64,000 nucleotides of DNA from an uncultured Pseudomonadales bacterium (lineage in GTDB: Bacteria; Patescibacteriota; Microgenomatia; UBA1400; PJMF01). The notes under the pieces were generated by a model. That model saw only the letters and a list, made by a program, of their open reading frames with translations, did not search any database and was not told the DNA's origin. Numbering within the stretch: position 1 is the stretch's first letter; the number at the start of each line of letters is the position of its first letter. Below are positions 5,839 to 50,866 of the stretch, in pieces. The stretch spans positions 57,752 to 121,751 of the forward strand of contig CAZMXT010000002.1 in NCBI GenBank assembly GCA_964570365.1. Direction: 5' to 3'. Made by a program: the position numbers and the translations under genes.

Positions 5839-5852
5839 CTGCTGCAGTTTTT

Positions 5853-6602
5853 TTAGTACGCAGTCAAGATCTGCGGCCCATTTTTAGTAATTAAAACCGT
5901 GTGTTCGATCATCCCTGACAAAGAACCATCAACGGTTCGTTGGGTCCAGCCATCTGCATCGACATACAGATCTGGTTTTCCCATGGTGTACATGATCTCA
6001 ATAGCGACAGTTTGGCCTTCAAAGAACAGCACCCGTTTATCTCGCCTAATGGCGACACAAGGAATGCTCGGATCTTCATGTAGCTGCTTGCTAATTCCAT
6101 GCCCAGTGAGTTGGTGCACCGCGCCATAGCCATGGCGCTCCACTGTCTTTTGCATGGCAGAGCTGACGTCATATACGGAGTTGCCGATTACAGCTTGAGA
6201 AATTGCCTTATCTAGAGCATTCTGACCAACTTTTAGGAACTCGAGAACTTCAGCTGGAGCTTTCCCGTAAATAGCCGAGGCAGTGGTATCAACGTGAAAG
6301 CCTTGATAGAGCAGACCAACGTCAATCGTAATCAGGTCACCATCCAGAATAACTTTGTCTTTACTAGGAATACCGTGACAGACTTCATCGTTCTTCATGA
6401 TGCAGGTTGCCCAGTGGTAGCCAGGAACTAAAGCAAAGTTGGGCACCGCGCCATGCTGCTGAATTAGTTTCTGCGCCAAAGCCTCGATCTGGGAAAAGTT
6501 TTTACCAACTTCAGCAAACTTGACTAACTCCTCCCTGATCATCCCGAGAATACGGCCGCCTTCAGTCATGGCTTTAATCTTAGTTTGGGTCTGAGCTTCC
6601 AT
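5853..6602 (-). CDS. map: type I methionine aminopeptidase
   Basis: 249 aa, MetAP metal-binding residues and fold-typical sequence; conserved position after adk. Confidence 0.9.
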   Translation of the reverse strand: MEAQTQTKIKAMTEGGRILGMIREELVKFAEVGKNFSQIEALAQKLIQQHGAVPNFALVPGYHWATCIMKNDEVCHGIPSKDKVILDGDLITIDVGLLYQGFHVDTTASAIYGKAPAEVLEFLKVGQNALDKAISQAVIGNSVYDVSSAMQKTVERHGYGAVHQLTGHGISKQLHEDPSIPCVAIRRDKRVLFFEGQTVAIEIMYTMGKPDLYVDADGWTQRTVDGSLSGMIEHTVLITKNGPQILTAY

Positions 6603-6622
6603 AGAACTTTCTAACTCTGGAA

Positions 6623-7156
6623 TTAGGCCAATTGCTGCACGATGACTTCAAAAACCTGCTCCATAGAAAGTTCGCCATTGACCTGGATCAGCTGACCATT
6701 GTTGCGATAGTACTCAATGACCGTCTCTGTAAGCTCGTGGAAAAGCTGAATTCGTTTGCGAATCGCTTGTAAGTTCTCATCTTCGCGGTCTGTTACACGA
6801 CCTGAAATACGCCACAAGGCTTCTTTATCGCTCACATCGATGAAAATAACTTTATCCACGCCACTTTGGAAAGCTTCAGCTTGAACCACTGTGCGAGGAA
6901 AACCATCCAAGATATACCCATGCGCATACTCCGGCTTCTTTAAGTACTCCATGATAATTTCTAAGGTCAATTTATCGGGAACCAGCAGTCCTGCATTTAA
7001 GGTTTCCTTGAGTGTACGGCCGATTGAGCCTTTGTCCTTAGACATTTCTCGGAAGATGTGACCTGAAGACAGGTACGGAATCTTAAACTTTTCCGCTAAC
7101 AAATTTCCTTGAGTGGACTTGCCCGCACCTTGAATACCGATCAACACAAGTTTCAT
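6623..7156 (-). CDS. adk: adenylate kinase (short form, no zinc lid)
   Basis: 177 aa, P-loop GIQGAGKSTQ, after secY. Confidence 0.9.
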   Translation of the reverse strand: MKLVLIGIQGAGKSTQGNLLAEKFKIPYLSSGHIFREMSKDKGSIGRTLKETLNAGLLVPDKLTLEIIMEYLKKPEYAHGYILDGFPRTVVQAEAFQSGVDKVIFIDVSDKEALWRISGRVTDREDENLQAIRKRIQLFHELTETVIEYYRNNGQLIQVNGELSMEQVFEVIVQQLA

Positions 7157-7192
7157 ACTGCTCCTTATAGGTTTTTTGTTTTGGGTAATTTG

Positions 7193-8476
7193 TTAAATAT
7201 ATTTATCGTAGTTTTCACCGACTAGCATACCATCCAGTTGTTTGGCAGTCTCTAAGACTACTGAAACCACGATCAGCATACTGGTTCCCCCGATAGCCAG
7301 CGACTGGAAACCTGAGAGGCCTTGGGCCACTGAAGGTAAAATTGCAATAAAGCCTAGGAAAAGCGCGCCAATAAAAGTAATTCTGACCACCACATACTCA
7401 AGGAACTTTTTGGTTGGTCCACCCGGACGAATACCTGGGACAAAGGCGCCACTTTTCTTCAGCTCTTCAGAAATATCCCCGGCATTGAAGAAGATAAGCG
7501 CTGAGAAGTAGGTAAACAAGAAGACGATCAAAAAATAAGTAATGATGTAGATTGGAGCAGTGGGCGCAAACCAAATCGTCAGGTTTTGACCTAAGCGAGC
7601 CAGCTGCGGCTGCGAAAGACCGAGGAAGAATCGACCTACTAAAGGTGGAGCCAACATAATCGTCACGGCAAAGATGATTGGCATCACCCCAGCGACGTTG
7701 ATCTTAATTGGAAAGTGAGTGGTTTGGCCACCAATTGCTTTGCCAGCTCTGAGTCGTTTCGCATATTGAATCTGGACCTTACGAATCGCTTCATTCATAA
7801 AGACCATCAAAGTAATAACTCCCAGGAATAAGAGTCCAAAAATTCCAACTTTGACAAAGTCTTGAGTGGTTGTAACTGAAAGGACTTGCGCAGTAGCGAT
7901 TGGTAACTGACCGACAATACCAGCAAACAACACCATCGAGATACCATTGCCAATTCCATAAAGGGTCACCAACTCTCCTAACCACATTAGCACCATTGCA
8001 CCTGCGACTAGGGTGAAGAGCATCGCAATAATAGAGAGAGGGTCACTAGCACTTAGTAAGGATTGAGAACGGAGAAAGGCTAGGACCGAAATGCTTTGGA
8101 CCACTGCAATCGGCACGCTCAGCAGTCGAGTGTATTGATTCAGACGTTCTCGACCACTTTCGCCTTCTTTCTGCATTTCCTTGAGTGGTGGGAAGATCAT
8201 CCCTCCCAGCTGAATCACAATTGAAGCCGTAATATATGGGTTAATACCGACCGCCATCACTGAGAAGTTGGCCAATGTACCGCCAGAGAAAATATTGAGC
8301 ACACTCAAGAGTTGATTTGAAGCAAAAAGACTACGAATTTGAGAGACGTCTACGCCTGGAACTGGCACGTGAGCCAGGAGGCGGAAAATAAAAAATACTC
8401 CAGCCGTGAAAAAGATCTTTTTTCGAACGACAGGATTGGAAAAAATGCGTTGAATACCGGCAAGAATTTGCTTCAT
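7193..8476 (-). CDS. secY: preprotein translocase subunit SecY
   Basis: 427 aa polytopic membrane protein; 4-nt overlap with rplO. Confidence 0.9.
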   Translation of the reverse strand: MKQILAGIQRIFSNPVVRKKIFFTAGVFFIFRLLAHVPVPGVDVSQIRSLFASNQLLSVLNIFSGGTLANFSVMAVGINPYITASIVIQLGGMIFPPLKEMQKEGESGRERLNQYTRLLSVPIAVVQSISVLAFLRSQSLLSASDPLSIIAMLFTLVAGAMVLMWLGELVTLYGIGNGISMVLFAGIVGQLPIATAQVLSVTTTQDFVKVGIFGLLFLGVITLMVFMNEAIRKVQIQYAKRLRAGKAIGGQTTHFPIKINVAGVMPIIFAVTIMLAPPLVGRFFLGLSQPQLARLGQNLTIWFAPTAPIYIITYFLIVFLFTYFSALIFFNAGDISEELKKSGAFVPGIRPGGPTKKFLEYVVVRITFIGALFLGFIAILPSVAQGLSGFQSLAIGGTSMLIVVSVVLETAKQLDGMLVGENYDKYI

Positions 8477-8922
8477 GACTGAGCAGCTTCGATAGTACCA
8501 CCTTGCTGCTCAATTATTGTAGCAGCATTTTTGGAAACCGGGATACCACGGACGATCACTTTGCGACTTAAAGTACCATTATTGATAATTTTGGCTTTTC
8601 TAAAACGACCTTCAATGACTTTTTCGAGCTTCAATGTATCGAGGGTGATGATATCAGCTTTCATTTTGTCGATCTCAGATAAAGAAACTGCTGCAGCTGG
8701 ATCCAACACATTAAAACGTTTCTTACCCCTCAACATTGGTAAACGCTTAATTAAAGGTAATTGGCCACCTTCAAACCAGGCTGGAGCCTGACCACTCTTG
8801 CGAGATCGTTGACCCTTGGAACCACGACCCACCGTATGATTTCCCTTGCCAGATCCAGTGCCACGACCAAGTCGTTTGGCTGGTTTATCGACAATTTTGG
8901 TTAAGGTTTTCAGTAAAGACAT
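8473..8922 (-). CDS. rplO: 50S ribosomal protein L15
   Basis: 149 aa, G/R-rich N-terminal region typical of L15; directly follows rpsE with no rpmD between. Confidence 0.9.
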   Translation of the reverse strand: MSLLKTLTKIVDKPAKRLGRGTGSGKGNHTVGRGSKGQRSRKSGQAPAWFEGGQLPLIKRLPMLRGKKRFNVLDPAAAVSLSEIDKMKADIITLDTLKLEKVIEGRFRKAKIINNGTLSRKVIVRGIPVSKNAATIIEQQGGTIEAAQS

Positions 8923-8928
8923 ACAGAG

Positions 8929-9666
8929 CTACTTTTTGACTACTTTTTTAAGAACTTTTTTGACTACAGGCTTTTGAGTAGGAGCAGGAGTAGTCTCAGT
9001 TTTAACACCCTTTTCTGCAGCTCTCTGGCCGTCCGCCACGCTTGGCTTGGCGGCAGGTTTATTGGCTGCAGCTGCTTTTTCACTTAATTCGCGCAACTTC
9101 TTTTGCTCTTCACGCTCAATCTCAGAAATTGACTTTAAGCGAATCCCTTTCAGGGCCACGATTTTTTGAATTCGACGTAAGGCTTCAAAAGTTGCATAGA
9201 CACTCACTGACTGATTACTTGAGCCTAGGATTTTACTTGAGATGTCACGGATCCCAGCGGCTTCGACCACAGCGCGAACTGGTCCACCAGCAATGACTCC
9301 AGAACCCTTTGGGGCTGGCTTTAACATGACTCGGCCAGCACCAAGCTTGGCCACGATCGAGAAAGGGATGGTGGTTCCATCTAAAGGAACGGTAATCATT
9401 TTCTTCTTGGCTTTTTTGACACCTTTGCGAATTGCAGATTGAACATCTTTAGATTTACCAAGTCCGACACCAACGCGACCTTTGCGGTCACCCACTACCA
9501 TTAAAATTGAGAAACCCATCTTGTTGCCACCCTTGGTTTTTTTAGACACACGGGAAACTGAGATGACTTTTTCTTCAAACTCTTTATCGTCACGAGTTGC
9601 GGCAACGTTTTGAGCGACTACTTTGAGTTTTTTATCGTTAGAAATGGTATTGGTTGGATCTATCAT
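8929..9666 (-). CDS. rpsE: 30S ribosomal protein S5 with K/A/P-rich C-terminal tail
   Basis: 245 aa; S5 dsRBD and C-terminal domain; tail contains a copy of the VADGQR repeat element. Confidence 0.9.
   Translation of the reverse strand: MIDPTNTISNDKKLKVVAQNVAATRDDKEFEEKVISVSRVSKKTKGGNKMGFSILMVVGDRKGRVGVGLGKSKDVQSAIRKGVKKAKKKMITVPLDGTTIPFSIVAKLGAGRVMLKPAPKGSGVIAGGPVRAVVEAAGIRDISSKILGSSNQSVSVYATFEALRRIQKIVALKGIRLKSISEIEREEQKKLRELSEKAAAANKPAAKPSVADGQRAAEKGVKTETTPAPTQKPVVKKVLKKVVKK
9017..9054 (-). repeat. copy 2 of the repeat element in the rpsE tail
   Basis: GCAGCTCTCTGGCCGTCCGCCACGCTTGGCTTGGCGGC; encodes AAKPSVADGQRAA. Confidence 0.7.
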
Positions 9667-12466: not shown

Positions 12467-12865
12467 TTACTTTGCTTTCTTCACTGCAGTTCTCCGGCCG
12501 TCCGCCACGCTTTGCTTGGCGGCTTTTGCTTTTGGAGTTGCTTTTTTCTCACTCTTGGTAGCCTCAACAGCAACTTTTACCTCAGCTTCATTTTTCACCA
12601 CTTTCACTGTAGGTAATACACTCTCTCCACCTTTTGGATCAATCTTGGCTGTCACAATAAAACTCTTAGTCTTACTGATTGGCCGACATGATTTGATAGA
12701 GACGGTATCGCCTTCTTTTAACTCTAAGTTCTCTACGTGGCAAGCATAGTTTTTAGTCCGCTTGACGTATTTTTTATAGAGTGGATGCTGCCACTTGCGA
12801 GTTACAGTTACTGTGACAGTATTTGTATTTTTCGCTGAAGTGACGATTCCTTGAATCAATTTCAT
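12467..12865 (-). CDS. rpsQ: 30S ribosomal protein S17 with K/A-rich C-terminal tail
   Basis: 132 aa; S17 OB fold N-terminally; tail contains the VADGRR repeat element. Confidence 0.9.
12486..12523 (-). repeat. copy 3 of the repeat element in the rpsQ tail
   Basis: GCAGTTCTCCGGCCGTCCGCCACGCTTTGCTTGGCGGC; encodes [13 protein letters not shown]. Confidence 0.7.
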
Positions 12866-21675: not shown

Positions 21676-22152
21676 TTACCATCTGAAGTGAGCAAATGCT
21701 TTATTCGCGTCAGCCATGCGGTGCGCGCCATCGCGTTTGCCAATGGATCCGCCAGTGTTGTTCAAGGCATCGAGCATCTCTGCGGCCAACTTCTCAGCAA
21801 AGCTGTGATACTGCTTATTTGAACGTTTATTTGCTTCCTCAACTAACCAACGGACTGAAAGGGAAAGGCCTCGACGTCCGCGGATTGGCATTGGCACCTG
21901 ATAGGCGGCTCCACCAACTCTTCTGGAACGAACTTCCATTTGAGGAGTAATCATTCTGATCACTTCTTCAACTAACTCCAGAGGCTTTTTGCCTGTTTCC
22001 TTGGCTAGAAGATCCAGTGCCAGATAGACCTGCTTCTCAGCAACTGACTTCTTGCCATCTCGCATCACCCGATTAATAATCTTAGTGATCTTGGGAGAGT
22101 TGAATTTTAAGTCTGGTTGGACTTCGATGATTTTGGCGCGTTTAGCTCGCAT
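21676..22152 (-). CDS. rpsG: 30S ribosomal protein S7
   Basis: 158 aa. Confidence 0.9.
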   Translation of the reverse strand: MRAKRAKIIEVQPDLKFNSPKITKIINRVMRDGKKSVAEKQVYLALDLLAKETGKKPLELVEEVIRMITPQMEVRSRRVGGAAYQVPMPIRGRRGLSLSVRWLVEEANKRSNKQYHSFAEKLAAEMLDALNNTGGSIGKRDGAHRMADANKAFAHFRW

Positions 22153-22172
22153 ATTGGTATTCCTTGATTTGA

Positions 22173-22595
22173 TTAAGCAGCGGCAGCTGGTTTCTTCATT
22201 CCGTATTTACTACGACTTGTTTTACGTTTCTCAACACCAGCAGCGTCGTACTTTCCACGAACGATGTGATACTTCACACCTGGTAAGTCTTTCACACGTC
22301 CACCGCGAACTAAGACGATACTATGTTCAGCAAGATTATGACCTTCTCCCATGATGTACGCAGTCACCTCCACCTTGTTAGAAAGACGGACACGAGCAAC
22401 TTTACGCAAAGCTGAGTTAGGTTTCTTTGGGGTCATGGTTTTGACCACGGTACAAACACCACGTTTTTGAGGATTTATTGTTTTGGTTGGCTTCCCAGTC
22501 ACACTGTTGAAGCTGCGACGAAAAGCACTCGACTTAATTCGCTTTGGATTACTCCGACGAGCTTTATTACGAATTAATTGATTAATTGTTGGCAT
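22173..22595 (-). CDS. rpsL: 30S ribosomal protein S12
   Basis: ORF to 22622; S12 N-terminus MPTINQLIR at the internal Met. Confidence 0.9.
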
Positions 22596-22806
22596 GAACA
22601 AACTCCTTACTAAAACTAACACTTGAGTGAAGGAGGAGGAAGAGAAGGAAAATCTTGAGGGGAAGAGAGACTATTGCGCCTACTCTACTTGCAAAGTTTT
22701 TCCTTGTATTACTCCTTTTTGAGGTGTTGTTCTACTCTGCTGTGTCTATCTCAACTGAGAAAAACCGAACAATCTCTTCACACAAGTTTGGGTATTGTAT
22801 CAGGGG

Positions 22807-22835
22807 GTGGGGAGAAATGCAAAGCGAGGTTAGCC
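22807..22835 (-). promoter_or_regulatory. candidate sigma70-type promoter of the str operon (TTGCAT-17 nt-TACAAT on minus strand)
   Basis: Reverse complement of 22801..22840 reads tcgcTTTGCATttctccccaccccctgaTACAATaccc; lies just downstream of the 221-aa gene and ~190 nt upstream of rpsL. Confidence 0.35.
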
Positions 22836-22859
22836 ACCCTCTTTCTATACAGGTTCACG

Positions 22860-23525
22860 TCAAAGCGAACTATAGGATTCCACATAAGCTTTCTTAGCGG
22901 CTTGATAAGCTCTTTCAAGTAAAGGAGAGTCACCTAAGCCAAACTCTTTTAGCATTTGGTAGTCTCTATCAAGCAGCAGCCAACGAGTGACAGCATCCTG
23001 AGCGACAGGAAAGGATTTATTTACGAATAGCCGGGTATCAACTCCTGAAAAATTCCTGATCATAAAAGATATATCAACCTTGAGTAGATCCTTCATAATT
23101 TTTCGCAACTCAAAAACTACACCCAGCTTATCAGCAAGGGGGGTTTGCTCACTCCCAGATAGATAGCTAAATGCATACTTTTCCATAAATGTGCGCAGTG
23201 TCTCCAACCTCTCTCGTGGACCATACTGGTCAAGATGCTTAATAGTGTTTTGACCCTGGAACTTGCTGAAGATTATGGTTGAAAGATCTCCCACAGCTGA
23301 CTCTGCTGAAAAAATTTTACCCTCATGGGATGTTAAAGTGATACCTATGGAATTTTCAGTCTGTAATTTTAAACTCAAAGCATCTAGCTTTAGACGAACA
23401 GCCGCTATTCTCATTCCATACTGAAGCTGAACTGTCTCCACCCCCTGTTCTTTTGCAGCTCTTACTTGATTGAGCTTATCTGCTTGTTCTTGAGGGTTAG
23501 TTCCCCGCCAATCTTGCTGATCCAT
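22860..23525 (-). CDS. hypothetical protein (221 aa) inserted between rpoC and rpsL
   Basis: Clean ORF with no family recognised by eye; flanked by a terminator upstream and a promoter-like element downstream. Confidence 0.6.
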   Translation of the reverse strand: MDQQDWRGTNPQEQADKLNQVRAAKEQGVETVQLQYGMRIAAVRLKLDALSLKLQTENSIGITLTSHEGKIFSAESAVGDLSTIIFSKFQGQNTIKHLDQYGPRERLETLRTFMEKYAFSYLSGSEQTPLADKLGVVFELRKIMKDLLKVDISFMIRNFSGVDTRLFVNKSFPVAQDAVTRWLLLDRDYQMLKEFGLGDSPLLERAYQAAKKAYVESYSSL

Positions 23526-23670
23526 TACTGGAAATTCACTTCCCTTTTCAAAGGCTCCTGCTTGATTGATTGCATATTGATGATGTCTTTCTGGTGGGGG
23601 GGGACTTCTGAACGTAAAGCAGGACTAATCATTTTTTCCTCTATTTTCTGTAGTATGAGTCTAGCATACC

Positions 23671-23703
23671 AAAAAGCCCCAACTTTGCAGCCAGGGCTTT
23701 TCT
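23671..23703 (-). terminator. rho-independent terminator after rpoC
   Basis: Minus-strand RNA: aagcccuggcu-GCAA-aguuggggcuu hairpin (~11 bp with GU pairs, GNRA loop) followed by UUUUU. Confidence 0.5.
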
Positions 23704-23740
23704 AGATTTCTTTCAAAACTCGCCTACTTTACCTTTTCGC

Positions 23741-26700
23741 TTAGGCCTCAATCATTGCCCGATCTGGTGAAGTCGGAATTAAGCGACCGATGATGACGTT
23801 CTCTTTCAAGCCTTCGAGGTAGTCGATGGCACCTGTCACCGCGGCGTCGGTGAGGACGTTCTTGGTGTGTTGGAAGGATGCCGCTGATAACCATGAACTG
23901 GTAAAGAGAGATGATCTGGTAATACCGAGAATCATCACCTTGGCTGTTGCTGGCTCACCGCCGGCTGCCATGACGGCATCGTTGGCTTGCACAAACTTGG
24001 CTCGTTCACTGACTTCACCAGTTAAGTACTCTGTGTCGCCTGGTGACTCGATCTGAACCTTGTCACTCATCTTGCGCACAATCACTTCAAAGTGCTTGTC
24101 GTGAATTGGAATACCTTGTGACTCGTACACTTTCTGAATCTGTTCAATGGTGTACTCTTGAGCGGCTAACATGCCACGAACTTGTAAAATCTCGCGCACA
24201 TCTAAGCTGCCCTTGGTCAACTGAGTACCTGTATTCACTAACTCGCCTTCAGCGACTTTCAGCGCCAACGCTTTGGGCACAGTGTAGACACGCTCTTCTA
24301 CTGGCTGAGAAGTACTTCTGATGGTGATGACGTTGGCCATCTCAGTCACTTCAACAGAAACTTTACCAGAGATCTCGGCCATTGGGGCTGGTGTCTTTGG
24401 GATACGAGCTTCAAAGAGCTCTTCTACACGTGGCAGACCTTGAGTCACGTCGAGTCCGACGATACCTCCAGAGTGCTTGACACGCATCGTGAGCTGAGTT
24501 CCTGGCTCACCGATTGATTGAGCACCAATGACTCCGACTGGAACACCGATCTCCACCATACCTCTAGTAGAGAAGTCCCAACCGTAGCATTGAGCACAAA
24601 TTCCTCTGGAAGCCTTACAAGTTAAAGGTGAACGGACAAATGCTGATGCAACTTTAGATTTTTCAATCTGGACTGAAATCTCATCAGTGATCATCTCGCC
24701 ACCCTTCACAATAGTCTTCTTGCCATCAACGATATCGTTCAAAGCAATCCGACCAACTAAGCGGTTACCAAAGATTGCTGCGCGTGGCTCACGGTGAATC
24801 TCTAAGCCTTTGTCAGTTTGACAGTCTTGCAACCGGATGATGACATCGTGAGAGACGTCTACTAAACGACGGGTTAAGTACCCGGCGTCAGCAGTCTTCA
24901 GCGCTGAGTCAGTCAAACCTTTTCGAGAACCACGTGAGGATGTCACGTACTCGAAAATGGTTAATCCCTGGCGGAAATTTGACTTGGTTGGCATTTCCAC
25001 AATCTTACCGAGTGGGTCAACGACGAGTCCACGCATAGCAGCCAGCTGTTTCACCTGGTCCTTGGAAGCACGAGTACCTCCAGAGTTGATCATGACTTTG
25101 ACCGCATTATTTTCTGGGTATGAAGCCCAGGTCTTTTCGGCCACAGTCTCTGTCGTATCCATCCAAATTTGGAAAGTTAAACGGCGACGCTCTTCGATAG
25201 TGACTAAACCATCAAGATAACTTTGCTGAACTTCTTCAGCCTTCTTGTTGGCTCCTTCAATAATGACATCTTTTTCAGCGATCATCTTACAGTCACTGAC
25301 CGAGACTGAAAGTCCGGAGGTGGTGGCTGCTTCAAAGCCAAGGTCCTTGATATCGTCAATTAAGGCACTGACTCTGTCTGAAGTTTCAGTGTGAATTGCA
25401 ACCGTAACTAACTCTTTAATTTTCTTGGCGGTAATTGAGTCATTCACAAATCTCAGACTCTCAGGCAAGACGTCATTAAAGAGCAAACGGCCGACAGTTG
25501 TTTTGACAATTGAGGACTTACCAGCAGCATCCTTTAAACGAACACTGATCAGCTGTCGCATCGAGATCACTCCTGTTTGATGAGCATGATATGCCTCATC
25601 TTGAGAAGAGAAGATCGATGGGTGAGCTGGAGCATCAACGTCAATAGATGTCTGATAGTAGGAACCCATAGCCATTTCTTTGTTTGGCACGGTAATTGGA
25701 TCACCATTGGCTGGCTTTAAGAGGTTGCGAGAAGCCAGCATTAAGGTGCGAGCTTCTTCTTGGGCCTCAACAGTCAAAGGGACGTGAACAGCCATCTGGT
25801 CGCCGTCAAAGTCAGCGTTATATCCAGAACAAACACATGGATGTAAGCGGATCGCTTTTCCTTCAATTAACAGAGGGAAAAAAGCCTGCATACCAAGTTT
25901 ATGAAGCGTAGGAGCGCGATTTAGTACCACAGGGTGGTCATAGATGACTTTTTCCAAGATGTCATAGACTTCTGGTTCGCGACGTTCAATCAGATGCTTG
26001 GCACTTTTTACATTTGGTGCAGTGCCTTGCATGATTAATTGATGGAGCACATATGGCTTAAACATTTCGAGTGCCATGTCTTTTGGAAGTCCACACTCAT
26101 TCAACTTGAGCTCTGGACCTACCACGATCACAGATCGACCAGAATAGTCAACACGCTTACCCAGTAAGTTCTGGCGGAAGCGACCTTGCTTGCCGCGCAG
26201 CATCTCTGAGAGGGAACGCAATGGCTTACGGTTCGAACGACGCTTGGCTTGGCGAGCTTGGCTACTGTCAATTAAGGAGTCCACTGCCTCTTGCAGCATA
26301 CGCTTTTCGTTGCGTAAGATGATCTCTGGAGCACCTAACTCGATCAAGTGCTTTAACCGATTATTGCGGTTGATCACGCGTCGATAAAGGTCATTCAAAT
26401 CTGAAGTTGCAAATCTTCCGCCTGACAGCTGCACCATCGGTCGCAGATCTGGGGGAATAACTGGCAAAACAGTTAAGAAGGTCCAGGTAGGGGTGATTTT
26501 GGCTTTTATTAAACCTTCCACTACGCGAAGGCGCTTGGTTGCTTTGATTTTCTTGGCACCTTTGGCCTCAGCCATCTCAGCACGCAACTTCTCAACTAAC
26601 TCTATCAAGTCAACGTCTTGGACTAACTCCATGATGCTCTCGGCACCCATTCCCACCCGAAGGTGATCCACGGCGTTGTACTCGTCTAACTTCAAATACT

Positions 26701-27439
26701 CATCTTCACTCAAGATAGAACCCTTGCGGATTCGCTTCAGCATGGATTTGAGTGTCTTGTAGACTTCTTCTGTTTGCTCTAACTGAGTTTCCAACTGCTC
26801 TTTGAGGTTGGTCAGGGCTTGTTTGGCCTTGAGCGTAATTTCGGTAACGCGCAGCTCCAAAGTTTCTTGACTCTTGACCTTGTTCTGTAGACTGGCTTTG
26901 GCTTCTTCAAGATCTGTCTTGACCTTTTCCATATCTAACTTGGTCTTTTCCTTCAGTTCATCTTGAGCAATCACCAACTCACTGTCGAGCTTCTCGACCA
27001 CTTGATTGCGCTCTTCTTGATCTACACTCAATACTACGTACTGAGAGAAGTAGATGATTGAAGCCAAGTTACGAGGTGAGATGTCGAGCAAGAGTGACAA
27101 CTTAGAAGGAGCTCCCTTGAAAAACCAGATATGAGCGATTGGAGTCGCTAAAGTAATGTGACCCATGCGCTCACGACGTACTCGAGATTGAGTTACTTCG
27201 ACGCCACACTTGTCACAAATAATACCTTTATAGCGGATCCGCTTGTACTTCCCACAGTAGCACTCATAGTCTTTCATCGGGCCAAAGATCTTTTCATCAA
27301 AAAGACCATCTTTTTCAGCACGCAAAGATCGATAATTGATGGTTTCTGGTTTCTTGACTTCGCCATAAGACCAAGACTTGATGATCTCTGGGGAGGCAAT
27401 ACGAATTTCTAGGGATGTAAAGTCTACTATTTGTTTCAT
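23741..27439 (-). CDS. rpoC: DNA-directed RNA polymerase subunit beta-prime
   Basis: 1232 aa; zinc-binding CxxC pairs near the N-terminus, NADFDGD catalytic motif; 4-nt overlap with rpoB. Confidence 0.95.
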   Translation of the reverse strand: MKQIVDFTSLEIRIASPEIIKSWSYGEVKKPETINYRSLRAEKDGLFDEKIFGPMKDYECYCGKYKRIRYKGIICDKCGVEVTQSRVRRERMGHITLATPIAHIWFFKGAPSKLSLLLDISPRNLASIIYFSQYVVLSVDQEERNQVVEKLDSELVIAQDELKEKTKLDMEKVKTDLEEAKASLQNKVKSQETLELRVTEITLKAKQALTNLKEQLETQLEQTEEVYKTLKSMLKRIRKGSILSEDEYLKLDEYNAVDHLRVGMGAESIMELVQDVDLIELVEKLRAEMAEAKGAKKIKATKRLRVVEGLIKAKITPTWTFLTVLPVIPPDLRPMVQLSGGRFATSDLNDLYRRVINRNNRLKHLIELGAPEIILRNEKRMLQEAVDSLIDSSQARQAKRRSNRKPLRSLSEMLRGKQGRFRQNLLGKRVDYSGRSVIVVGPELKLNECGLPKDMALEMFKPYVLHQLIMQGTAPNVKSAKHLIERREPEVYDILEKVIYDHPVVLNRAPTLHKLGMQAFFPLLIEGKAIRLHPCVCSGYNADFDGDQMAVHVPLTVEAQEEARTLMLASRNLLKPANGDPITVPNKEMAMGSYYQTSIDVDAPAHPSIFSSQDEAYHAHQTGVISMRQLISVRLKDAAGKSSIVKTTVGRLLFNDVLPESLRFVNDSITAKKIKELVTVAIHTETSDRVSALIDDIKDLGFEAATTSGLSVSVSDCKMIAEKDVIIEGANKKAEEVQQSYLDGLVTIEERRRLTFQIWMDTTETVAEKTWASYPENNAVKVMINSGGTRASKDQVKQLAAMRGLVVDPLGKIVEMPTKSNFRQGLTIFEYVTSSRGSRKGLTDSALKTADAGYLTRRLVDVSHDVIIRLQDCQTDKGLEIHREPRAAIFGNRLVGRIALNDIVDGKKTIVKGGEMITDEISVQIEKSKVASAFVRSPLTCKASRGICAQCYGWDFSTRGMVEIGVPVGVIGAQSIGEPGTQLTMRVKHSGGIVGLDVTQGLPRVEELFEARIPKTPAPMAEISGKVSVEVTEMANVITIRSTSQPVEERVYTVPKALALKVAEGELVNTGTQLTKGSLDVREILQVRGMLAAQEYTIEQIQKVYESQGIPIHDKHFEVIVRKMSDKVQIESPGDTEYLTGEVSERAKFVQANDAVMAAGGEPATAKVMILGITRSSLFTSSWLSAASFQHTKNVLTDAAVTGAIDYLEGLKENVIIGRLIPTSPDRAMIEA

Positions 27440-30400
27440 AATGCTCCTTCTTCGACTGCTTCGAGGTCTTCAGGCTCGGGTTCTTTTTCTTCTGTCTCGA
27501 CTTCAGTGTCACCAGCAATCACGGCTTCCTCATCAGTGACGGTCAGCTCTTCGCCAGTTGCAGCCTCATCCTGAACTAAAGTCAAATCGATAATGTCATC
27601 AGTCGCATTCAGAGGGAGAACTGCCTTATCGGCTTCATCAGCTGCATCGACAACTTCTTCACCATGAGGGACGATGTTCAGGCCAAGAGACTTGACTTCA
27701 CATAAGAAGACTCGGAAAGACTCCGTGACTGTTGGATCAGGAATTTCAGTTCCCTTGACAATAGCTTCAAAGGTCTTGGCTCTTCCCACGACGTCGTCTG
27801 ACTTAATCGTCAACATTTCTTGCAACATGTGAGCTGCTCGATGTGCTTCCAAGGCCCAGACTTCCATTTCTCCAAGTCGCTGTCCTCCCATTTGAGCTTT
27901 TCCACCCAAAGGCTGTTGTGTAACTAAGGAGTATGGTCCAGTTGAGCGAGCATGAGTCTTATCTTCCACCATGTGGATCAGCTTCAAGATGTACCCGATA
28001 CCGACGGTGGTGTCTTCGCTAAATGGCTCTCCGGTGCGGCCATCAATTAAACGGACTTTTCCACTGGCTGGCAAGCCCGCGCGCTCGAGCTCTTCCCAAA
28101 TCTTAGCTTCATTGACTTTTTCAAAGGCTGGGATGGCTACTTTATAGCCCAGCTTATCTGCAGCCCACCCCAAGTGGGACTCTAACAGCTGACCAAGGTT
28201 CATACGAGCCAAGACAGAAAGTGGCGAAATAATAATATCAATTGGCGTACCATCGGCCAAGTGTGGCATGTCAGCTTCTGGCACAATCTTGGAAATAACA
28301 CCTTTGTTTCCGTGACGTCCTGCAACCTTGTCTCCGACAGTAATCTTACGAACTTGAGCAACTTTAACGGTCACTTCTTTAATAGTTCCTGGATCTAACT
28401 CATCACCGAGATCTCGATCGAGGATCTGAACATCAATCACCACACCACTCTCACCATGAGGCATGCGTAGCGAGGTGTCTCGGACTTCGCGAGACTTCTC
28501 ACCAAAGATAGCTCGGAGTAGTCGCTCTTCAGGAGTCAACTCTGTCTCACCTTTAGGAGCAATCTTTCCCACTAAGATATCACCCGAAGTTACAACTGAA
28601 CCAATCCGGATGATACCGTCTGGAGTTAAGTTGCCTAAGAACGCTTCAGCCACATTTGGAATATCGTTGGTTAATTCCTCAGGTCCAAGCTTGGTATCCA
28701 TGACAGTGGCTCGGTATTCACTAATGTGAATAGAGGTCAACAGATCTTGTTTCACAATTCGGTCTGAGATAACGATGGCGTCTTCGTAGCCGAGTCCTTC
28801 AAATGAAGAATAGGCGATCAATAAGTTTGAACCAAGAGCCAACTCTCCATTATCAGTAGCTGGTCCATCAATAATGACGTCACCACGCTTGATTTTTTGG
28901 CCAACTACGACTGTTGGTTTCTGAGAGTAACAGGTACTTTGTGAGGTTCTAAAGAACTTCTCTACCTGATAGGTTTCGGTTTCATCGTTCAGGACAATGC
29001 GTTCGTTTTCATCAGTCTTTTGGAGTAACTTGGCATGATCTTTTTCTTTTTTATCTAACTCAACAACAACTCTGTTGGCATCAACATACTTAACTACTCC
29101 AGCGTGACGGGCAGAAACAGTGCGTTCCATGGCTACAGCCACGGCATTTTCCATACCAGTACCAACCACTGGAGCTTCTGGTTTCAATAATGGCACTGCT
29201 TGACACTGCATGTGCGTACCCATCAGGGCGCGATTCGCTTCGTCATGAGCAATAAAAGGGATCAGTGAAGCTGAAGTACCAATCACCTGACGTGGAATGA
29301 CGTCAATGTACTCGACATCAGTTGCTGGACCTTCCATAAAGTCATTCATGTGACGGATAGGCACCCACTCCTGAGTAATTTCGTTGTTATCACTGATCTC
29401 GACACCAGCATGAGTAATCTTGACATCTTCCTCGTCATCAGCAGAAAGATAGGTAATCTCATCTTGGATCATCATCTTGCCATTTTTGTTGACTACTTTT
29501 CGATATGGAGCTTCTAAGAAACCAAAGTTGTTCACCTTGGCATAGAGTGCTAAGTAGGTGACTAATCCGATGTTTGGGCCTTCTGGAGAACGAACCGGGT
29601 CGATTCTGGAGTACTGAGAGGCATTAATGTCACGCATTGAGAAAGAAGCGCGCTCTCTGGTCACACCACCACTACCCATTACTGACAAACGGCGTAAGTT
29701 ATCAATCTCAGCCAAAGGATTCGTTTGGTCAAGAATGGTTGATAAACGGTTGCGACGGAAAAATTCAGAAATAGTGGCAATCAATGGTCGAGCATTGACT
29801 AAAGCAGCTGGAGTTAAAACTTCATCTGTTTTGGTTAAGGACATTTTCTCACGAATAGATCGCTCTAAACGAATTAAGCCAATGCGGAAGGCATTTGCTT
29901 GCACCAACTCACCGACTCGGCGCACACGGCGGTTACTCAAGTGATCAATGTCGTCAACCTTCCCTTTACCATGTTGGAGCACGATTAAGTAACGAACTGC
30001 GGCCACGATGTCTCGAGGAGTCAAGACTGTGGAGGTTTCGTTAATATCAATCTTTAAGCGGCGATTTAATTTGTATCTACCCACTTCACCCAGGTCATAG
30101 CGGCGAGAATCAAAGAACATTTGTTGTAAAAGTTGTTTCGCATTTTCCAAGACGGCTGGCTCACCTGGTCTCATTTTTTCGTACAGCTCAATTAAAGCCT
30201 CAGCTTGGCTTTGAGTAGCATCTTTTTGTAATGTATTTTTAATGTAGTCAGTTGCACCTTTGATATCCACATCTGCAAATAACTTCATGATTTCTTCGTT
30301 AGTTCCATAACCCATAGCACGAAGTAACACGCTGACTGGCATCTTACGACGTCGGTCGATCTTGACGGTAATCACATCACGTTTGCCGACATTGATCTCA

Positions 30401-30921
30401 ATCCAAGAGCCACGTAAAGGCCTCAACTCTGCTTGATACAGCATCTTACCGATTGAAGGCTCCATGTCGCCAGAGAAGAAAATACCTGGAGAACGAACTA
30501 ACTGAGTGACCACTGCACGCTCGATACCATTAATAATAAAGGTGCCAGCTGAGGTCATTTTAGGAATATCACCTAAGAACACTTCTTGGGTTTGCTCTTC
30601 ACCAGTGCGTTTATTGAGCAAAGTTGCTTCAACACGAATGGGAATATCAAAGGAGACGGCTTTTTTCTTGGCTTGGAAGCGAGTGTACTTGGCTTTACCA
30701 AAGTGATATGCGCCAAACTTAAGACTCCAGTTCTTACCAGTGAAGTCTTCTATGCCATTTTCACCATTAATTTCATCAAGAGATAGACGAATGCCGATCT
30801 CGAGAAACTGTTCGTAACTCTCGCGCTGGACTTTAGTCAAGTCAAGCTCAGGCAGAGCCACACCGGTTTTCCCCCAGTACTGGCGCTCGCTTTGATGCGG
30901 TGAAGATGAAGTTTGCAACAT
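27436..30921 (-). CDS. rpoB: DNA-directed RNA polymerase subunit beta, with acidic C-terminal tail
   Basis: ORF to 30978; the N-terminal Met is uncertain (MLQTSSS... at 30921 is likely); the C-terminal ~60 aa are Asp/Glu-rich. Confidence 0.9.
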   Translation of the reverse strand: MLQTSSSPHQSERQYWGKTGVALPELDLTKVQRESYEQFLEIGIRLSLDEINGENGIEDFTGKNWSLKFGAYHFGKAKYTRFQAKKKAVSFDIPIRVEATLLNKRTGEEQTQEVFLGDIPKMTSAGTFIINGIERAVVTQLVRSPGIFFSGDMEPSIGKMLYQAELRPLRGSWIEINVGKRDVITVKIDRRRKMPVSVLLRAMGYGTNEEIMKLFADVDIKGATDYIKNTLQKDATQSQAEALIELYEKMRPGEPAVLENAKQLLQQMFFDSRRYDLGEVGRYKLNRRLKIDINETSTVLTPRDIVAAVRYLIVLQHGKGKVDDIDHLSNRRVRRVGELVQANAFRIGLIRLERSIREKMSLTKTDEVLTPAALVNARPLIATISEFFRRNRLSTILDQTNPLAEIDNLRRLSVMGSGGVTRERASFSMRDINASQYSRIDPVRSPEGPNIGLVTYLALYAKVNNFGFLEAPYRKVVNKNGKMMIQDEITYLSADDEEDVKITHAGVEISDNNEITQEWVPIRHMNDFMEGPATDVEYIDVIPRQVIGTSASLIPFIAHDEANRALMGTHMQCQAVPLLKPEAPVVGTGMENAVAVAMERTVSARHAGVVKYVDANRVVVELDKKEKDHAKLLQKTDENERIVLNDETETYQVEKFFRTSQSTCYSQKPTVVVGQKIKRGDVIIDGPATDNGELALGSNLLIAYSSFEGLGYEDAIVISDRIVKQDLLTSIHISEYRATVMDTKLGPEELTNDIPNVAEAFLGNLTPDGIIRIGSVVTSGDILVGKIAPKGETELTPEERLLRAIFGEKSREVRDTSLRMPHGESGVVIDVQILDRDLGDELDPGTIKEVTVKVAQVRKITVGDKVAGRHGNKGVISKIVPEADMPHLADGTPIDIIISPLSVLARMNLGQLLESHLGWAADKLGYKVAIPAFEKVNEAKIWEELERAGLPASGKVRLIDGRTGEPFSEDTTVGIGYILKLIHMVEDKTHARSTGPYSLVTQQPLGGKAQMGGQRLGEMEVWALEAHRAAHMLQEMLTIKSDDVVGRAKTFEAIVKGTEIPDPTVTESFRVFLCEVKSLGLNIVPHGEEVVDAADEADKAVLPLNATDDIIDLTLVQDEAATGEELTVTDEEAVIAGDTEVETEEKEPEPEDLEAVEEGAL

Positions 30922-31146
30922 GAACGCTCCTTTTTCCGTTAAATAAACGGACCTGATCTGTATGCAAATGCGAACCAAAAAAAGGCTGCCCTCCGAGAGG
31001 ACCTCCTTCTGTTAGACGCAGTTTAGTCAAAAAGAAAATGTATTTGGCAAGCCAACTTTCTCGATTTACGACGCGAAATTGCAGTTTTCGCGTAGGTGAT
31101 TTTACCAATCATTTTTAATTAATGCAATGGCGAATTGTATCATCAT

Positions 31147-32542: not shown

Positions 32543-33529
32543 CTATAATGGCTGTGTTTCCAACTCAGCCACGATGACTCCTCTACGTAAGTAGGTCCCT
32601 TCTGGGACACAGGTGATCAATTTTAACTGATTTACCTGATAATTTTGCTCCAAAATAAAAGTTTCATCAGGCTTAACTTCTCGTTTTTCCCTCACAATAT
32701 AGGTATATCGAACGTCATCATGGGTGACGTAAATTCTATCTCCAGGTTTTAAGATCATAATTTTACTGAAAATCGAGTTGTAGCGACGAGGATTTTTAAT
32801 GCTGGGGTTATAAAACTGCCGCAAGACAGAGTGACCAAAAATCACCGGCGAGCCTAGTTGACCTGGCATAGCTGTTCCAGGGTACTGAATCAAACTGTGA
32901 TCCAAGTTGGTGCCCCCAACTCGCACCTTGGCATTCTCCACATTTAAGGTGGGAATATCAACTCGATACTCAATTTGGCTAGTACTCGTCTCACTTTCTC
33001 CAAGCTCAGGTATAGAGCTTTCGGGGAACCAGTTTGAAAGATTACTATAGTCAAGTTGGTCGTTCAAAATTGTCGGTTCAATACTAGAAACTTCTCCAGC
33101 TGAAAAAGCTTCAGCCTGATCATTGCTCCCTTGCGCCTGTACCTGAGTGACTCCAGGAATTCTCGCCTCTAGGACTTGCTCTCGTGGAATTGGTGCCAAG
33201 AGATTAGTACTGGAGAGATCAGGAGAAGTAAAAACAAAGTACGATAAGATCGGCCAAGCTGCGTTCCCGACTAAGAAAATACCCAAACTCACAAAAATAA
33301 TAGGTAAAGAGTGTGCAAAAACCCTCGCTAGCAACGGACCTTTTTTTTTAATCTTTTGGAGGTGTTGACGATCATCCTTTTCTTCTAATTTCAGGGTAGT
33401 TTGAGAGCGCAGCAAAAAGGTATCAATTTTTTGTTGCACTGTATCTAAAGGGATGTTCCCTAAAACTGCCTGACGATAAAGACTAATGAGCTTGTCTTTT
33501 GAAATTGCTCTGGTACTTGGGGAAGGCAT
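32543..33529 (-). CDS. sortase family transpeptidase
   Basis: 328 aa; N-terminal TM, C-terminal catalytic region with LITCVP (TLxTC) motif and a conserved His upstream. Confidence 0.75.
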   Translation of the reverse strand: MPSPSTRAISKDKLISLYRQAVLGNIPLDTVQQKIDTFLLRSQTTLKLEEKDDRQHLQKIKKKGPLLARVFAHSLPIIFVSLGIFLVGNAAWPILSYFVFTSPDLSSTNLLAPIPREQVLEARIPGVTQVQAQGSNDQAEAFSAGEVSSIEPTILNDQLDYSNLSNWFPESSIPELGESETSTSQIEYRVDIPTLNVENAKVRVGGTNLDHSLIQYPGTAMPGQLGSPVIFGHSVLRQFYNPSIKNPRRYNSIFSKIMILKPGDRIYVTHDDVRYTYIVREKREVKPDETFILEQNYQVNQLKLITCVPEGTYLRRGVIVAELETQPL

Positions 33530-33547: not shown

Positions 33548-35785
33548 TTACTCAGTAATCGTAATGGTAATTTTTTCGAGTTGCTTTGGTACTGATTGGG
33601 TGATTAAGGCAAAGAACTTTGGCCAACGGCTCACCTGAACTGACTCTATCTGAGGCTTTCCTTGCAAAGTCGCGACTGCCACTTTTTCTGCTTGGCCTGC
33701 TACTTCTTTTTTCCAGTCTTCCACTTGAACTACCGGTTGGACAACTGAGGAGAGATTTACATTTAAAGTCACTTGCGCAGAAGTGGTGGAGCTATTTGCT
33801 GGTGCAGATAAAATCTGCGGGTCTTTCTCGATCAACTTATAATTTGCTGGCGCCTGAGCTGACAAGATAGCGACTGCCAACGGCTTCAAATCTTCAGGCG
33901 AGTACGAGAGCGCCTCAGCTTCCATTTTTAGAGAAAGATCAAAGGTATTTGTTTCTTTGCCTACTTCTGCATTGTACTTGGTTTCCAAAACTTTTACTCG
34001 GTTCGTGGGAACAATAAAACGACCTTCAGCTGCTTGAGCATTCAGCTCAGTTGCAGCCTGATCACTGAGCTCTTTTCGCAGCGTAGCGAGTAAACTATCT
34101 CGGTCCTTTTGAGAAACCGCTCGGATTTCTCGACTGGTGCCGCCAGCTAACTGAGCATTCGTTCGAGCAACGTAGGTCTCCAGAGAGAAACTCTCGATTG
34201 TCAGCTCTGTTTGTGCCGGGATATTAGACGTATCACCGATCTCTGCTGCGGTAACCCCTGCTTCGCTAGTGCCTGGCTTGGTTTCGAAGTTTGTCCCAGT
34301 ACTTGCAGAGGCAACAGTGACTGATTCATCGAGGGTAAACTTCAGCGTCTTACTTGCCAATACAGTTCCTGCCGAAAAAGATTTAGCGCTGGAGGTTCGA
34401 TTAAATATCGTAATCTTTCCCTTTGCCTTATCTCCAATGATCTTTTTTCCAGTGGAATCAGCCGTCTTTTGACCTGAAACTTCTTTTTTCACCACATCGG
34501 CTTTTAAGACTCTTTTCTCTACATCACTACTGACCGCCTGAGAGTCTAAAATTAATTGAATTTCTTGACTGACTGGCTGAGTGCGAAGGCGAACTATAAA
34601 GTTGGCAGAGATCATGTTCCTGGCAGCAACGGTAGAAAAAAGAGCCAGTAGAGCGAGCCCAGTGATCACACCGATGATGACGAGCAGGATTGGTCGACGA
34701 TGAAAGAGATGCAACCTTCCATGACTAGGGACAGCGTCTTCGTAGGCATCTACATCTAGTTCTGCAGCAGTGGTAGCGTCGTGGGAATGAATAGAGTCTA
34801 ATGATACAGGAATCCCAAAAGTGGATGCCTGCGTATTGTGTGAGACAACAACATCTGGAACAGCAGTTGCTTCTTTCCTTTCAACTCTCTTGAAGTTATC
34901 TGGCACAGCTGTTCCCAGTCTTCCTGGTTCAGAGACTTCGTCCTCAATTTTGGAGTCATTCGCAACTGACAATTCTGCTTCGCCAAGCTCCCCATCCTCG
35001 GGAGAGGTAGTCTCAGCGATCAAATGATGAGCCTGAGCAACCGCTTTTCCACCAGTCTCCACCATCACCTCCAAAAACTTTTCAGGTGGATAGACCTCTA
35101 CTATGGGTGGGTGCATAAAAGGATGATGCTTCGCCCATTCGTAACCAAGGAGTTGTTGCTGAGTCGCCACTACTTCTTCGGCAGATAGAGTGCTGGAGAA
35201 GAGCAGAAACTTGGTTGGAAATACTTTTTCGGTAAAGTGAGCAAATGCCTCCGTTAAATCTGAGACGCCATCACCAGACCGACCAACTTGCTCAGTTTGC
35301 AAAATCTGCCCACTTTTGACTAAAGAAGCAAAAACTGCATGAGCAGTCAACTCAATTAGGAAAAAATGCTGCTGCGGTTCTGAGTTGTGAGCTAAGTACT
35401 GAACTAAGGCTTCAGAGGTCACCACAAAGCCAATTGCTTCTAACGATAATTCTTTAACGAGTTTTTGGAAAAGTGGTTTACGAATCTGCTGAATTCCTTC
35501 TTTGTCTACCCATTCAGGGTTCAGGGCAAAGAGTGCTTGCTTCACATTTTCTGACTCTTTCCCTAGTTCCTGCAAACTCAGATCAACCGCCTCTACGCAT
35601 TGCTCGTCAGTTTGCCATTGATGGGGTGAGGATTGAGTGACAACTTTTACTGCTCCATTGAGCACCTGCCACAAAACGGCTTGAACCTGACCATCTGCTA
35701 AGTGAATCGCAAAAAATAATGGGGTAGGAGTTTCTTCCTGATTTGATAACAACTGAGGGAGCTTCATGATCATAGGTCCTATCAT
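33548..35785 (-). CDS. membrane-anchored protein: N-terminal FtsA/PilM-like (degenerate) actin-fold domain, one TM helix, ~360-aa extracytoplasmic region
   Basis: N-terminal FFAIHLADGQVQAV resembles phosphate-1, FFLIELTAHAVFASL replaces DxGGGTT, and ETGGKAV resembles the adenosine motif; the TM helix begins LLVIIGVITGLALLALF. Confidence 0.45.
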   Translation of the reverse strand: MIGPMIMKLPQLLSNQEETPTPLFFAIHLADGQVQAVLWQVLNGAVKVVTQSSPHQWQTDEQCVEAVDLSLQELGKESENVKQALFALNPEWVDKEGIQQIRKPLFQKLVKELSLEAIGFVVTSEALVQYLAHNSEPQQHFFLIELTAHAVFASLVKSGQILQTEQVGRSGDGVSDLTEAFAHFTEKVFPTKFLLFSSTLSAEEVVATQQQLLGYEWAKHHPFMHPPIVEVYPPEKFLEVMVETGGKAVAQAHHLIAETTSPEDGELGEAELSVANDSKIEDEVSEPGRLGTAVPDNFKRVERKEATAVPDVVVSHNTQASTFGIPVSLDSIHSHDATTAAELDVDAYEDAVPSHGRLHLFHRRPILLVIIGVITGLALLALFSTVAARNMISANFIVRLRTQPVSQEIQLILDSQAVSSDVEKRVLKADVVKKEVSGQKTADSTGKKIIGDKAKGKITIFNRTSSAKSFSAGTVLASKTLKFTLDESVTVASASTGTNFETKPGTSEAGVTAAEIGDTSNIPAQTELTIESFSLETYVARTNAQLAGGTSREIRAVSQKDRDSLLATLRKELSDQAATELNAQAAEGRFIVPTNRVKVLETKYNAEVGKETNTFDLSLKMEAEALSYSPEDLKPLAVAILSAQAPANYKLIEKDPQILSAPANSSTTSAQVTLNVNLSSVVQPVVQVEDWKKEVAGQAEKVAVATLQGKPQIESVQVSRWPKFFALITQSVPKQLEKITITITE

Positions 35786-48287: not shown

Positions 48288-48869
48288 TTAGAATTCTAAA
48301 AAGTTAATATCAAAAGGCAGTTTCTCGGCCCAAGAACGCAACACTTTTTCTAAGGTTGATTGAGAAGGCTTTTTGTAAAGTAAGTACGTGCCAATAGCAT
48401 TCTTTATTTTTGCCTCCTCTGCATCAGGAATGATGAACTTCCAAACTTGAATACGCGGAAAAATACTTCTAATAAAAAGAACTTGTCCAGTGTTTTTTTC
48501 TTCTATCCAAAATTGAGAAAGATCTGGCCAAAAAAAATAGCGTTCACCATACTTGATCCCAATTGTCGTAACAGAGCATAGTAAATGAGCTGGGGGCACT
48601 GCGGAAAGTATCATATATAAAAACCCTAACACCAGTAGAACCACAGCCAGTAAGATCTCCTGCAACAAAATTAACAATAACAATACTAAAAGCATCAAAA
48701 TAAATAAATGTTTTTTCTCTGAGGAAGCACGTTTTTTGGTCAATTTATTGGGTGCCTGCCACTCTACCAGCATTTTTTCCTGGACCACGTACCGATCCAG
48801 ACCTAGGGGATCCTGATAAAATTTTTCTGGGAAACTTTGATTATTAGGAAATTCTTGTGTAGGAGACAT
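48288..48869 (-). CDS. hypothetical membrane protein
   Basis: 193 aa; Leu-rich double TM hairpin. Confidence 0.45.
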   Translation of the reverse strand: MSPTQEFPNNQSFPEKFYQDPLGLDRYVVQEKMLVEWQAPNKLTKKRASSEKKHLFILMLLVLLLLILLQEILLAVVLLVLGFLYMILSAVPPAHLLCSVTTIGIKYGERYFFWPDLSQFWIEEKNTGQVLFIRSIFPRIQVWKFIIPDAEEAKIKNAIGTYLLYKKPSQSTLEKVLRSWAEKLPFDINFLEF

Positions 48870-49017
48870 CTTTATACATATCTTACGGCTTTCTTTTTAC
48901 TTTGACAATAAAACAACTTCTTACGGAGTTAGAGAGATGTCTTCAGGATTGTAAGAAATACGTAAGGATCAAGAGAAAAACAATTGAGTGCAGAGGCATT
49001 TCTTGGTAAGATACGGT

Positions 49018-50429: not shown

Positions 50430-50497
50430 TGTACCCAGGAGCTTGCATGCCTCTAAGTCTGATTTTTGCCACGCTATTTCTTTATTAGAAGAAACAC

Positions 50498-50860: not shown

Positions 50861-50866
50861 TTCTTT

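Follow-up and report, generated by a model that had tools for sequence, protein, structure and literature searches.

In Bacillus subtilis and other Firmicutes, the space between rpoC and rpsL is occupied by ybxF/rplGB, a gene of the L7Ae family whose product is about 82 amino acids (aa) long, matches the Pfam family Ribosomal_L7Ae and is conserved across a phylum. Here we describe ORF221, an open reading frame (ORF) of 221 codons that lies between the same two genes in an uncultured bacterium of the Microgenomatia, on the minus strand (22860–23525) of a 64,000-nt stretch of contig CAZMXT010000002.1 (GenBank assembly GCA_964570365.1, positions 57,752–121,751), hereafter the window. ORF221 resembles ybxF/rplGB as a small extra gene sharing the orientation of its neighbours, but it encodes 221 aa, contains neither an L7Ae domain (PF01248) nor any other, and is confined to a single population. 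We consider it likely that ORF221 is a genuine, lineage-restricted accessory orphan, possibly phase-variable, which occupies the slot between the terminator of rpoC and the promoter of rpsL in a Microgenomates-type member of the candidate phyla radiation (CPR).

Two other kinds of system invite comparison. With strain-specific orphan genes that occupy variable slots among core genes, known as genomic hot spots or islets, ORF221 shares the lack of homologues, the intact signals of the surrounding core genes, cargo that differs from species to species and weak constraint; its slot, however, interrupts a gene string that is among the most conserved in bacteria, and there is no integrase, tRNA or repeat to explain its entry. 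Phase-variable contingency genes with homopolymeric G/C tracts occur in Neisseria, Haemophilus and Campylobacter; in CPR bacteria phase variation is not known to be established. Together with ORF35, a 35-codon ORF that overlaps its start, ORF221 resembles these genes in having a G/C homopolymer of 8–9 residues near the 5′ end of the coding region, the length of which would set the frame of a strong start, and in that this tract is unique in the 64 kb and apparently length-polymorphic in the population. It differs from them in that the longer allele (C9) was seen in one contig among 12, and in that the 'off' allele may still yield the 221-aa protein by coupling.

Results

Gene order and distribution of ORF221

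The minus strand of the window carries, in order, rpoB (27436–30978), rpoC, a gap of 1145 nt, rpsL, rpsG, fusA and tuf, and then the S10/spc string of ribosomal-protein genes. rpoC (23741–27439) encodes the 1232-aa β′ subunit of RNA polymerase with Pfam RNA_pol_Rpb1 domains 1–5, a call that was the same in the other contigs of the population, and rpsL (22173–22595) encodes ribosomal protein S12 (Pfam Ribosom_S12_S23, 1.7e-35) from an ATG at 22595 with an AAGGAG Shine–Dalgarno (SD) sequence. Read from rpoC to rpsL, the gap holds a hairpin, a possible extended −10 element, ORF35, ORF221, the motif TTGCAT-17-TG-a-TACAAT and a leader of about 200 nt.

The initial annotation had placed a 666-nt, 221-aa ORF of unknown family at 22860–23525 between rpoC and rpsL; the frame is exactly as described, and its lack of known relatives held in much larger collections. 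Pfam returned no family at E ≤ 1, NCBIfam gave a noise match (E = 0.033, 13 bits against a cut-off of 600), the best PHROG was a family of unknown function that was not significant (E = 0.025), and no PADLOC family matched, so that across these four and the PDB sequences nothing was better than E = 0.025. Neither ORF35 nor ORF221, which overlap as TAATG, matches a type II toxin–antitoxin family in Pfam or PADLOC. IMG/VR and the GenBank phages (INPHARED, tblastn) contained no match, and two scans of JGI metagenome contigs, with the protein and with an exact 37-mer, were empty in a collection that apparently lacks these samples. A word search of 5.8 billion proteins found one cluster (98% identity, 11 members), and an exhaustive HMMER search of 1.84 billion representatives found as its sole match a 78-aa fragment 100% identical to the query, both belonging to the gene's own population. 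As judged from these searches ORF221 is an orphan, with homologues outside its own population in none of the databases examined.

Twelve contigs bearing ORF221 were recovered from sibling metagenomes, namely JGI 3300015360, 3300020057, 3300020180, 3300020186, 3300020203 and 3300020219 and the Logan runs SRR64482xx and SRR6831528 (no contig was found for protein variants P0007 and P0012). They match the window at 99.82–99.96% identity over up to 20.7 kb and share its gene order, and ORF221 is therefore known from, and confined to, one species-level population.

With the C-terminal 399 aa of RpoC as query we obtained 80 species-representative genomes, the best 85% identical, all of them Patescibacteria (CPR) of Microgenomates, 'Pacebacteria' or Woesebacteria type. 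ORF221 is absent from all 80, including those with 82–85% identical RpoC, in agreement with the initial proposal of an accessory gene between the rpoBC and str operons. Gene order could be compared in the 64 related species in which rpsL lies downstream of rpoC inside the fetched locus; in about 10 further genomes, among them the one designated L005, rpsL fell outside the downstream sequence (0.03–6 kb, several contigs ending soon after rpoC). The gap between the two genes is at most 250 nt in 53 of the 64 species, and in some only 6–13 nt; it measures 250–450 nt in three and at least 500 nt (0.5–4.4 kb) in eight, where it is filled with cargo unrelated to ORF221. These eight are L004 (1146 nt; spacer 7197–8343), L006 (4425 nt; 5086–9511), L010 (920 nt; 7194–8114), L026 (502 nt), L034 (2946 nt), L035 (699 nt), L036 (676 nt) and L042 (2248 nt), and in L005 the spacer runs from 7197 to beyond 13197. 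Comparison of ORF221 with all ORFs in the relatives' gaps (phmmer, blastp) gave nothing below E = 1.7.

The Pfam matches of the relatives' cargo are weak, nearly all under the curated cut-offs, and several cargo ORFs have none. With that limit they hint at a receiver-domain protein in L004, a Phd/YefM-like antitoxin in L010, an AAA protein in L005, and a pilin-like protein, a pre-ATP-grasp protein and a large membrane protein in L006, the last of which is homologous to one in the L005 spacer; L034 and L035 have in common an uncharacterised cargo family of 147–187 aa without a Pfam match. An 82-aa ORF in L004 was considered as a relative of ORF221 on account of a resemblance (MIGP... against MISP...) and an 'MRI' helix and was rejected, as it did not beat shuffled sequences (protein p ~0.1; DNA about 2.3 standard deviations (sd) over the shuffle mean and under the best shuffle).

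Adjacency of rpoBC and str is thus the rule in this clade, as the initial annotation had assumed in calling the lodging of a gene there unusual, but that description was overstated given the eight cargo-bearing species. No homologue routinely sits at this position in the 64 species; ORF221 is specific to its population, and the junction is a recurrent cargo slot.

Coding status and predicted protein

ORF221 begins with ATG, and its coding status was assessed with a three-periodic Markov model for which 45 other ORFs of the window served as training set. It scored −17.8 in its own frame against −142 to −252 in the five other frames; leave-one-out scores of real genes averaged 36.6 (sd 36), and several accessory genes of the window fell below ORF221. 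Its G+C content (GC) at the three codon positions (GC1/GC2/GC3 = 0.54/0.36/0.36) follows the pattern of real genes, with an overall value of 0.417 against about 0.47 for rpoC, and the chance of an open frame of 221 codons in DNA of about 42% GC, estimated from base composition, is about 1e-6 per frame. Since the score favours a single frame and the three codon positions have their usual shape, we read ORF221 as a gene that, on its sequence, is or very recently was translated.

The predicted product (25.1 kDa, isoelectric point 7.8) has no hydrophobic segment (maximum 19-residue Kyte–Doolittle value, KD19, 0.96) and no N-terminus resembling a signal peptide. Single-sequence AlphaFold models were all-alpha, both at full length, with a predicted local distance difference test (pLDDT) of 45.8, and for the C-terminal 148 aa (pLDDT 58.3). 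A Foldseek comparison of the model with the PDB found nothing at E ≤ 0.001, a result that is uninformative because the models are poor. The product is probably a soluble, all-helical protein of 25 kDa.

Signals bounding the insert

The initial annotation had credited ORF221 with a terminator and a promoter of its own. Both elements exist, but they are conserved in relatives that lack ORF221, and they belong to rpoC and rpsL. The terminator, given there as a GNRA-capped hairpin at 23671–23703, was correctly located: on the minus strand at 23671–23702, starting 38 nt past the rpoC stop, a 14-bp stem with G-U pairs is closed by a GCAA tetraloop and followed by a U5 tail, as in an intrinsic (Rho-independent) terminator. 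A simple pattern scanner missed this hairpin; folding supports it (dG −18.9 kcal/mol, z = −3.9, equalled by 0 of 200 shuffles). Its architecture, AAAAGCCC...GGGGCTTTTTGGTA, also follows rpoC in L006, L007 and L010, where the orthologous hairpin is accompanied by TTTTTGGTA, and we accordingly read it as the ancestral rpoC terminator and not that of the inserted gene.

The TTGCAT-17-TACAAT motif likewise exists, but lies 13 nt from the position first assigned to it, at 22794–22822 and not 22807–22835. On the minus strand, TTGCAT (22817–22822) and a TG-extended TACAAT (22794–22799) are separated by 17 nt, a layout that fits a sigma-70-type promoter in its −35, its −10, its spacing of 17 ± 1 and its TG extension. 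Promoter-like matches in the region are not in excess (2 found against 2.5 expected from shuffles), and with the motif count alone at the level of shuffles, we take the promoter to be real because it is conserved: the extended −10 block TGaTACAATACC precedes rpsL in L004, L006 and L007 and, slightly changed, in L008 and L009. It is predicted to be the ancestral promoter of rpsL and of the str operon. In L007, which has no insert, the T-tract of the terminator is followed within about 12 nt by the −10 of the promoter; ORF35 and ORF221 therefore sit exactly in the spacer between terminator and promoter, two signals that are kept in relatives with and without cargo.

Folding showed no hairpin past the ORF221 stop (z = 0.12), which leaves the gene without a terminator of its own, so that any ORF221 transcript must continue into the str operon. 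At 23658–23666 on the minus strand, just past the rpoC terminator, the sequence TGcTAGACT is a candidate weak TG-extended −10 lacking a good −35; it was read from the sequence and not detected by a consensus scan, and a similar TGCTATACT follows the terminator in L006.

Downstream of the promoter, within the 5′ untranslated region of rpsL (22596–22790), lies a conserved structured element (22703–22786, minus strand) in which a 7-bp helix P1 (CUUGUGU/AUACAAG) encloses a variable hairpin, the sequence ACACC and a small hairpin. The order is ACUUGUGUGAAg, variable hairpin (its stem differing from genome to genome), ACACC, small hairpin, GGAGUAAUaCAAGG; P1 is present in all four of the closest genomes, and the element recurs at about 8168–8219 in L004, 9300–9369 in L006 and 7285–7354 in L007. 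In the window the 3′ strand of P1 may instead pair with a CU-rich tract (22634–22656), which could also mask the AAGGAG SD. Rfam gave no match for the element, nor for any of the region 22000–24000 at E ≤ 1. On these four sequences it may be an undescribed S12/S7 ribosomal-protein leader; it is not part of the orphan gene and marks the ancestral right-hand border of the slot.

Upstream ORF35 and the poly-C tract

Overlooked in the initial annotation was ORF35 (MISPALRSEVPPHQKDIINMQSIKQEPLKREVNFQ; 23525–23632, minus strand), whose ATG has a strong SD, GAGG, 5 nt ahead of it and whose stop shares one base with the ORF221 start (TAATG). The SD-like GGGAAG of ORF221 itself is poor and stands about 13 nt upstream, in contrast to the AAGGAG of rpsL at normal spacing. 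ORF35 was called in six contigs of the population and left uncalled in three with the same DNA there; in contig L084 it is fused and in L086 cut at the contig end.

Within ORF35 lies a run of eight C (23596–23603, minus strand), by homopolymer count the sole G/C run of at least 7 in the window. The tract is C8 in 11 contigs and C9 in L084 (10031–10039). As the ORF221 frame is open across the whole upstream stretch, C9 brings the strong-SD ATG at 23632 into the ORF221 frame, and the product is a 257-aa fusion protein (P0009). ORF35 may accordingly act as a leader or coupling ORF, or it may encode the N-terminal part of a 257-aa form; the difference in tract length could reflect slipped-strand phase variation or a homopolymer assembly error.

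Variation within the population

Across the 12 contigs the flanks contain 20 single-nucleotide polymorphisms (SNPs) in about 20 kb (1.0 per kb; 14 synonymous, 6 nonsynonymous), against 6 in the 666 nt of ORF221 (9 per kb; Poisson P = 7e-5). When S51N, known from protein P0006, is counted, the ratio of nonsynonymous to synonymous changes is 5:2 in ORF221 against 6:14 in the flanks (Fisher P = 0.08). The five amino acid polymorphisms, I71N, S87N, A131D, V179D and S51N (sites 23314, 23266, 23134 and 22990, and codon 51), all oppose A to another base at codon position 2; in each, Asn or Asp alternates with a small or apolar residue. Seven haplotype combinations of the first four are found among the variants. 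Of 12 full or partial protein variants, 10 retain an intact ORF and the others are truncated or frameshifted (P0005, 135 aa; P0012, 191 aa). Such variation is consistent with a dispensable gene under relaxed or diversifying selection.

Other features of the window

Other parts of the window also contain genes without a Pfam match. A low-GC block at 48288–55775 (0.37–0.39 against about 0.45 elsewhere) holds a two-component signalling cluster of two histidine kinases (one with seven transmembrane segments at its N-terminus), three receiver-only proteins, an OmpR-type regulator and a GAF protein, together with two ORFs lacking a Pfam match (48288–48869 and 54507–55775). A third such ORF, a further orphan of 745 aa (33548–35785), adjoins a sortase gene (32543–33529) and may encode a sortase-anchored surface protein. 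Direct repeats of about 75 nt, 67–75% identical, lie inside or near ribosomal-protein genes at 1316–1390, 9010–9084 and 12479–12553; their core, GGCCGTCCGCCACGC-TTGCTTGGCGGC, has an inverted repeat (GCCGCCAAGC / GCGTGGCGGACGGCC), and they may reflect Lys/Ala-rich coding tails in common or a hairpin element that recurs.

Discussion

The best explanation of these observations is that ORF221 is a fast-evolving, dispensable and weakly constrained gene and not a component of RNA polymerase or the ribosome. If expressed, it would be transcribed by read-through of the rpoC terminator, from the weak TG-extended −10 just past it, or from both, and its transcript would run on into the str operon. On the simplest reading, ribosomes would enter at the ATG of ORF35 and, on the common C8 allele, reach ORF221 by termination and reinitiation at TAATG, while the C9 allele would produce it as the in-frame fusion; the poly-C tract might then serve as a slipped-strand switch, either on/off or long/short. 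As to its role, we suggest, with low confidence, that it is a strain-variable protein of the 'conflict' or niche kind, with a part in interactions with phages or hosts, because the tract resembles a contingency locus, amino acid polymorphism is in excess and the distribution is patchy.

It should be noted that several points weigh against this interpretation. The features that speak for a conflict role are all circumstantial features of the population; no defence, toxin or surface domain was found for ORF221, and the flanks of the insert show neither terminal inverted repeats nor a target duplication, only 12-mers at the level expected by chance. The seven haplotype combinations may stem from true recombination or from the mixing by an assembler of two strains that co-exist, and C9, seen in just one of the 12 contigs, could be an assembly error. 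The composition of ORF35 does not discriminate between frames and gives no coding signal, and the expression of ORF221 is predicted from sequence anatomy. Finally, a ratio of nonsynonymous to synonymous polymorphism (pN/pS) near 1, truncated variants and a lack of relatives could also belong to a decaying or functionless ORF.

That ORF221 is such a remnant, either a recently acquired or de novo frame that drifts neutrally or a gene already inactivated by a C9-to-C8 frameshift that cut it off from its proper start and SD, strikes us as rather unlikely but is a serious alternative. Its pN/pS of about 0.8–1.5 (five nonsynonymous, two synonymous changes), a SNP density nine times that of the flanks, the two truncated variants, the want of a good SD with the strong SD and ATG out of frame in 11 of the 12 contigs, the lack of a homologue in any collection searched and a coding score at the low end of real genes would all suit a remnant; yet a frame of 221 codons has stayed open in 10 of 12 variants and is coding-like sharply in one frame only, the TAATG overlap is a classic arrangement for coupling, and in a streamlined genome of about 1 Mb neutral decay would be expected soon to introduce stops and indels. 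Integration at this site of a fragment from a phage or some other mobile element would account for the slightly low GC, the patchy distribution among strains and the varied cargo in the relatives' slot, but we hold it to be very improbable: the window has no integrase or transposase among the approximately 38 ORFs scanned with Pfam, the repeats at the borders are chance-level 12-mers, no PHROG is significant, IMG/VR and INPHARED hold no match, and the insert measures no more than about 0.85 kb. A housekeeping role as a lineage-typical partner of RNA polymerase or the ribosome, analogous to ybxF/rplGB, is suggested by nothing more than the position between rpoC and rpsL and the orientation shared with both operons; absence from all 80 related genomes effectively refutes it, and the want of a Ribosomal_L7Ae or other Pfam or NCBIfam match, the relaxed constraint, the truncated variants and the strong terminator between rpoC and ORF221 also speak against it, leaving it with hardly any probability.

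The adenine pattern of the polymorphisms raises the further idea that ORF221 is the target of adenine-directed hypermutation by a diversity-generating retroelement (DGR) or similar system, CPR genomes being known to be rich in DGRs. All five nonsynonymous polymorphisms oppose A to T, G or C at codon position 2, as in DGR variable proteins they would fall at adenines, and the seven haplotype combinations are set in nearly invariant flanks. ORF221 differs from such proteins, however, in having no C-type-lectin or Ig-like variable region; every site is strictly biallelic, the first-position adenines of the same AAY codons never vary, and the sites are spread over about 385 nt, in which some 110 other adenines are invariant, instead of forming a compact C-terminal variable repeat. 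With no template-repeat copy of any ORF221 segment in the 64 kb and no reverse transcriptase among the ORFs scanned, we rejected a DGR locally and regard it as extremely unlikely; selection or drift between polar Asn/Asp and apolar residues explains the pattern equally well, because codon position 2 sets polarity. We also give little credence to a full contingency gene, in which poly-C slippage would toggle between a strong-SD 257-aa and a weakly coupled 221-aa form, diversifying selection would act at a few surface positions (I/N, S/N, A/D, V/D) for conflict with phages or host cells, and the spacer would be a dedicated landing pad of Microgenomates for genes of fast turnover beside very highly transcribed operons.

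Returning to the accessory orphan that we favour, about half of CPR genes are unannotated, and the window itself contains at least three other ORFs of at least 190 aa without a Pfam match. An orphan in a variable slot is expected and ordinary for a CPR genome, and on present evidence ORF221 matters little in itself. Three points have modest value. The rpsL leader element may represent a ribosomal-protein leader not described before. With the poly-C tract and the clustered Asn/Asp polymorphisms, phase variation or diversifying selection could be tested cheaply in an uncultured CPR population. More broadly, the rpoBC–str junction, which is among the most conserved gene strings, is in Microgenomates a recurrent insertion slot, with the core signals left intact around the cargo.

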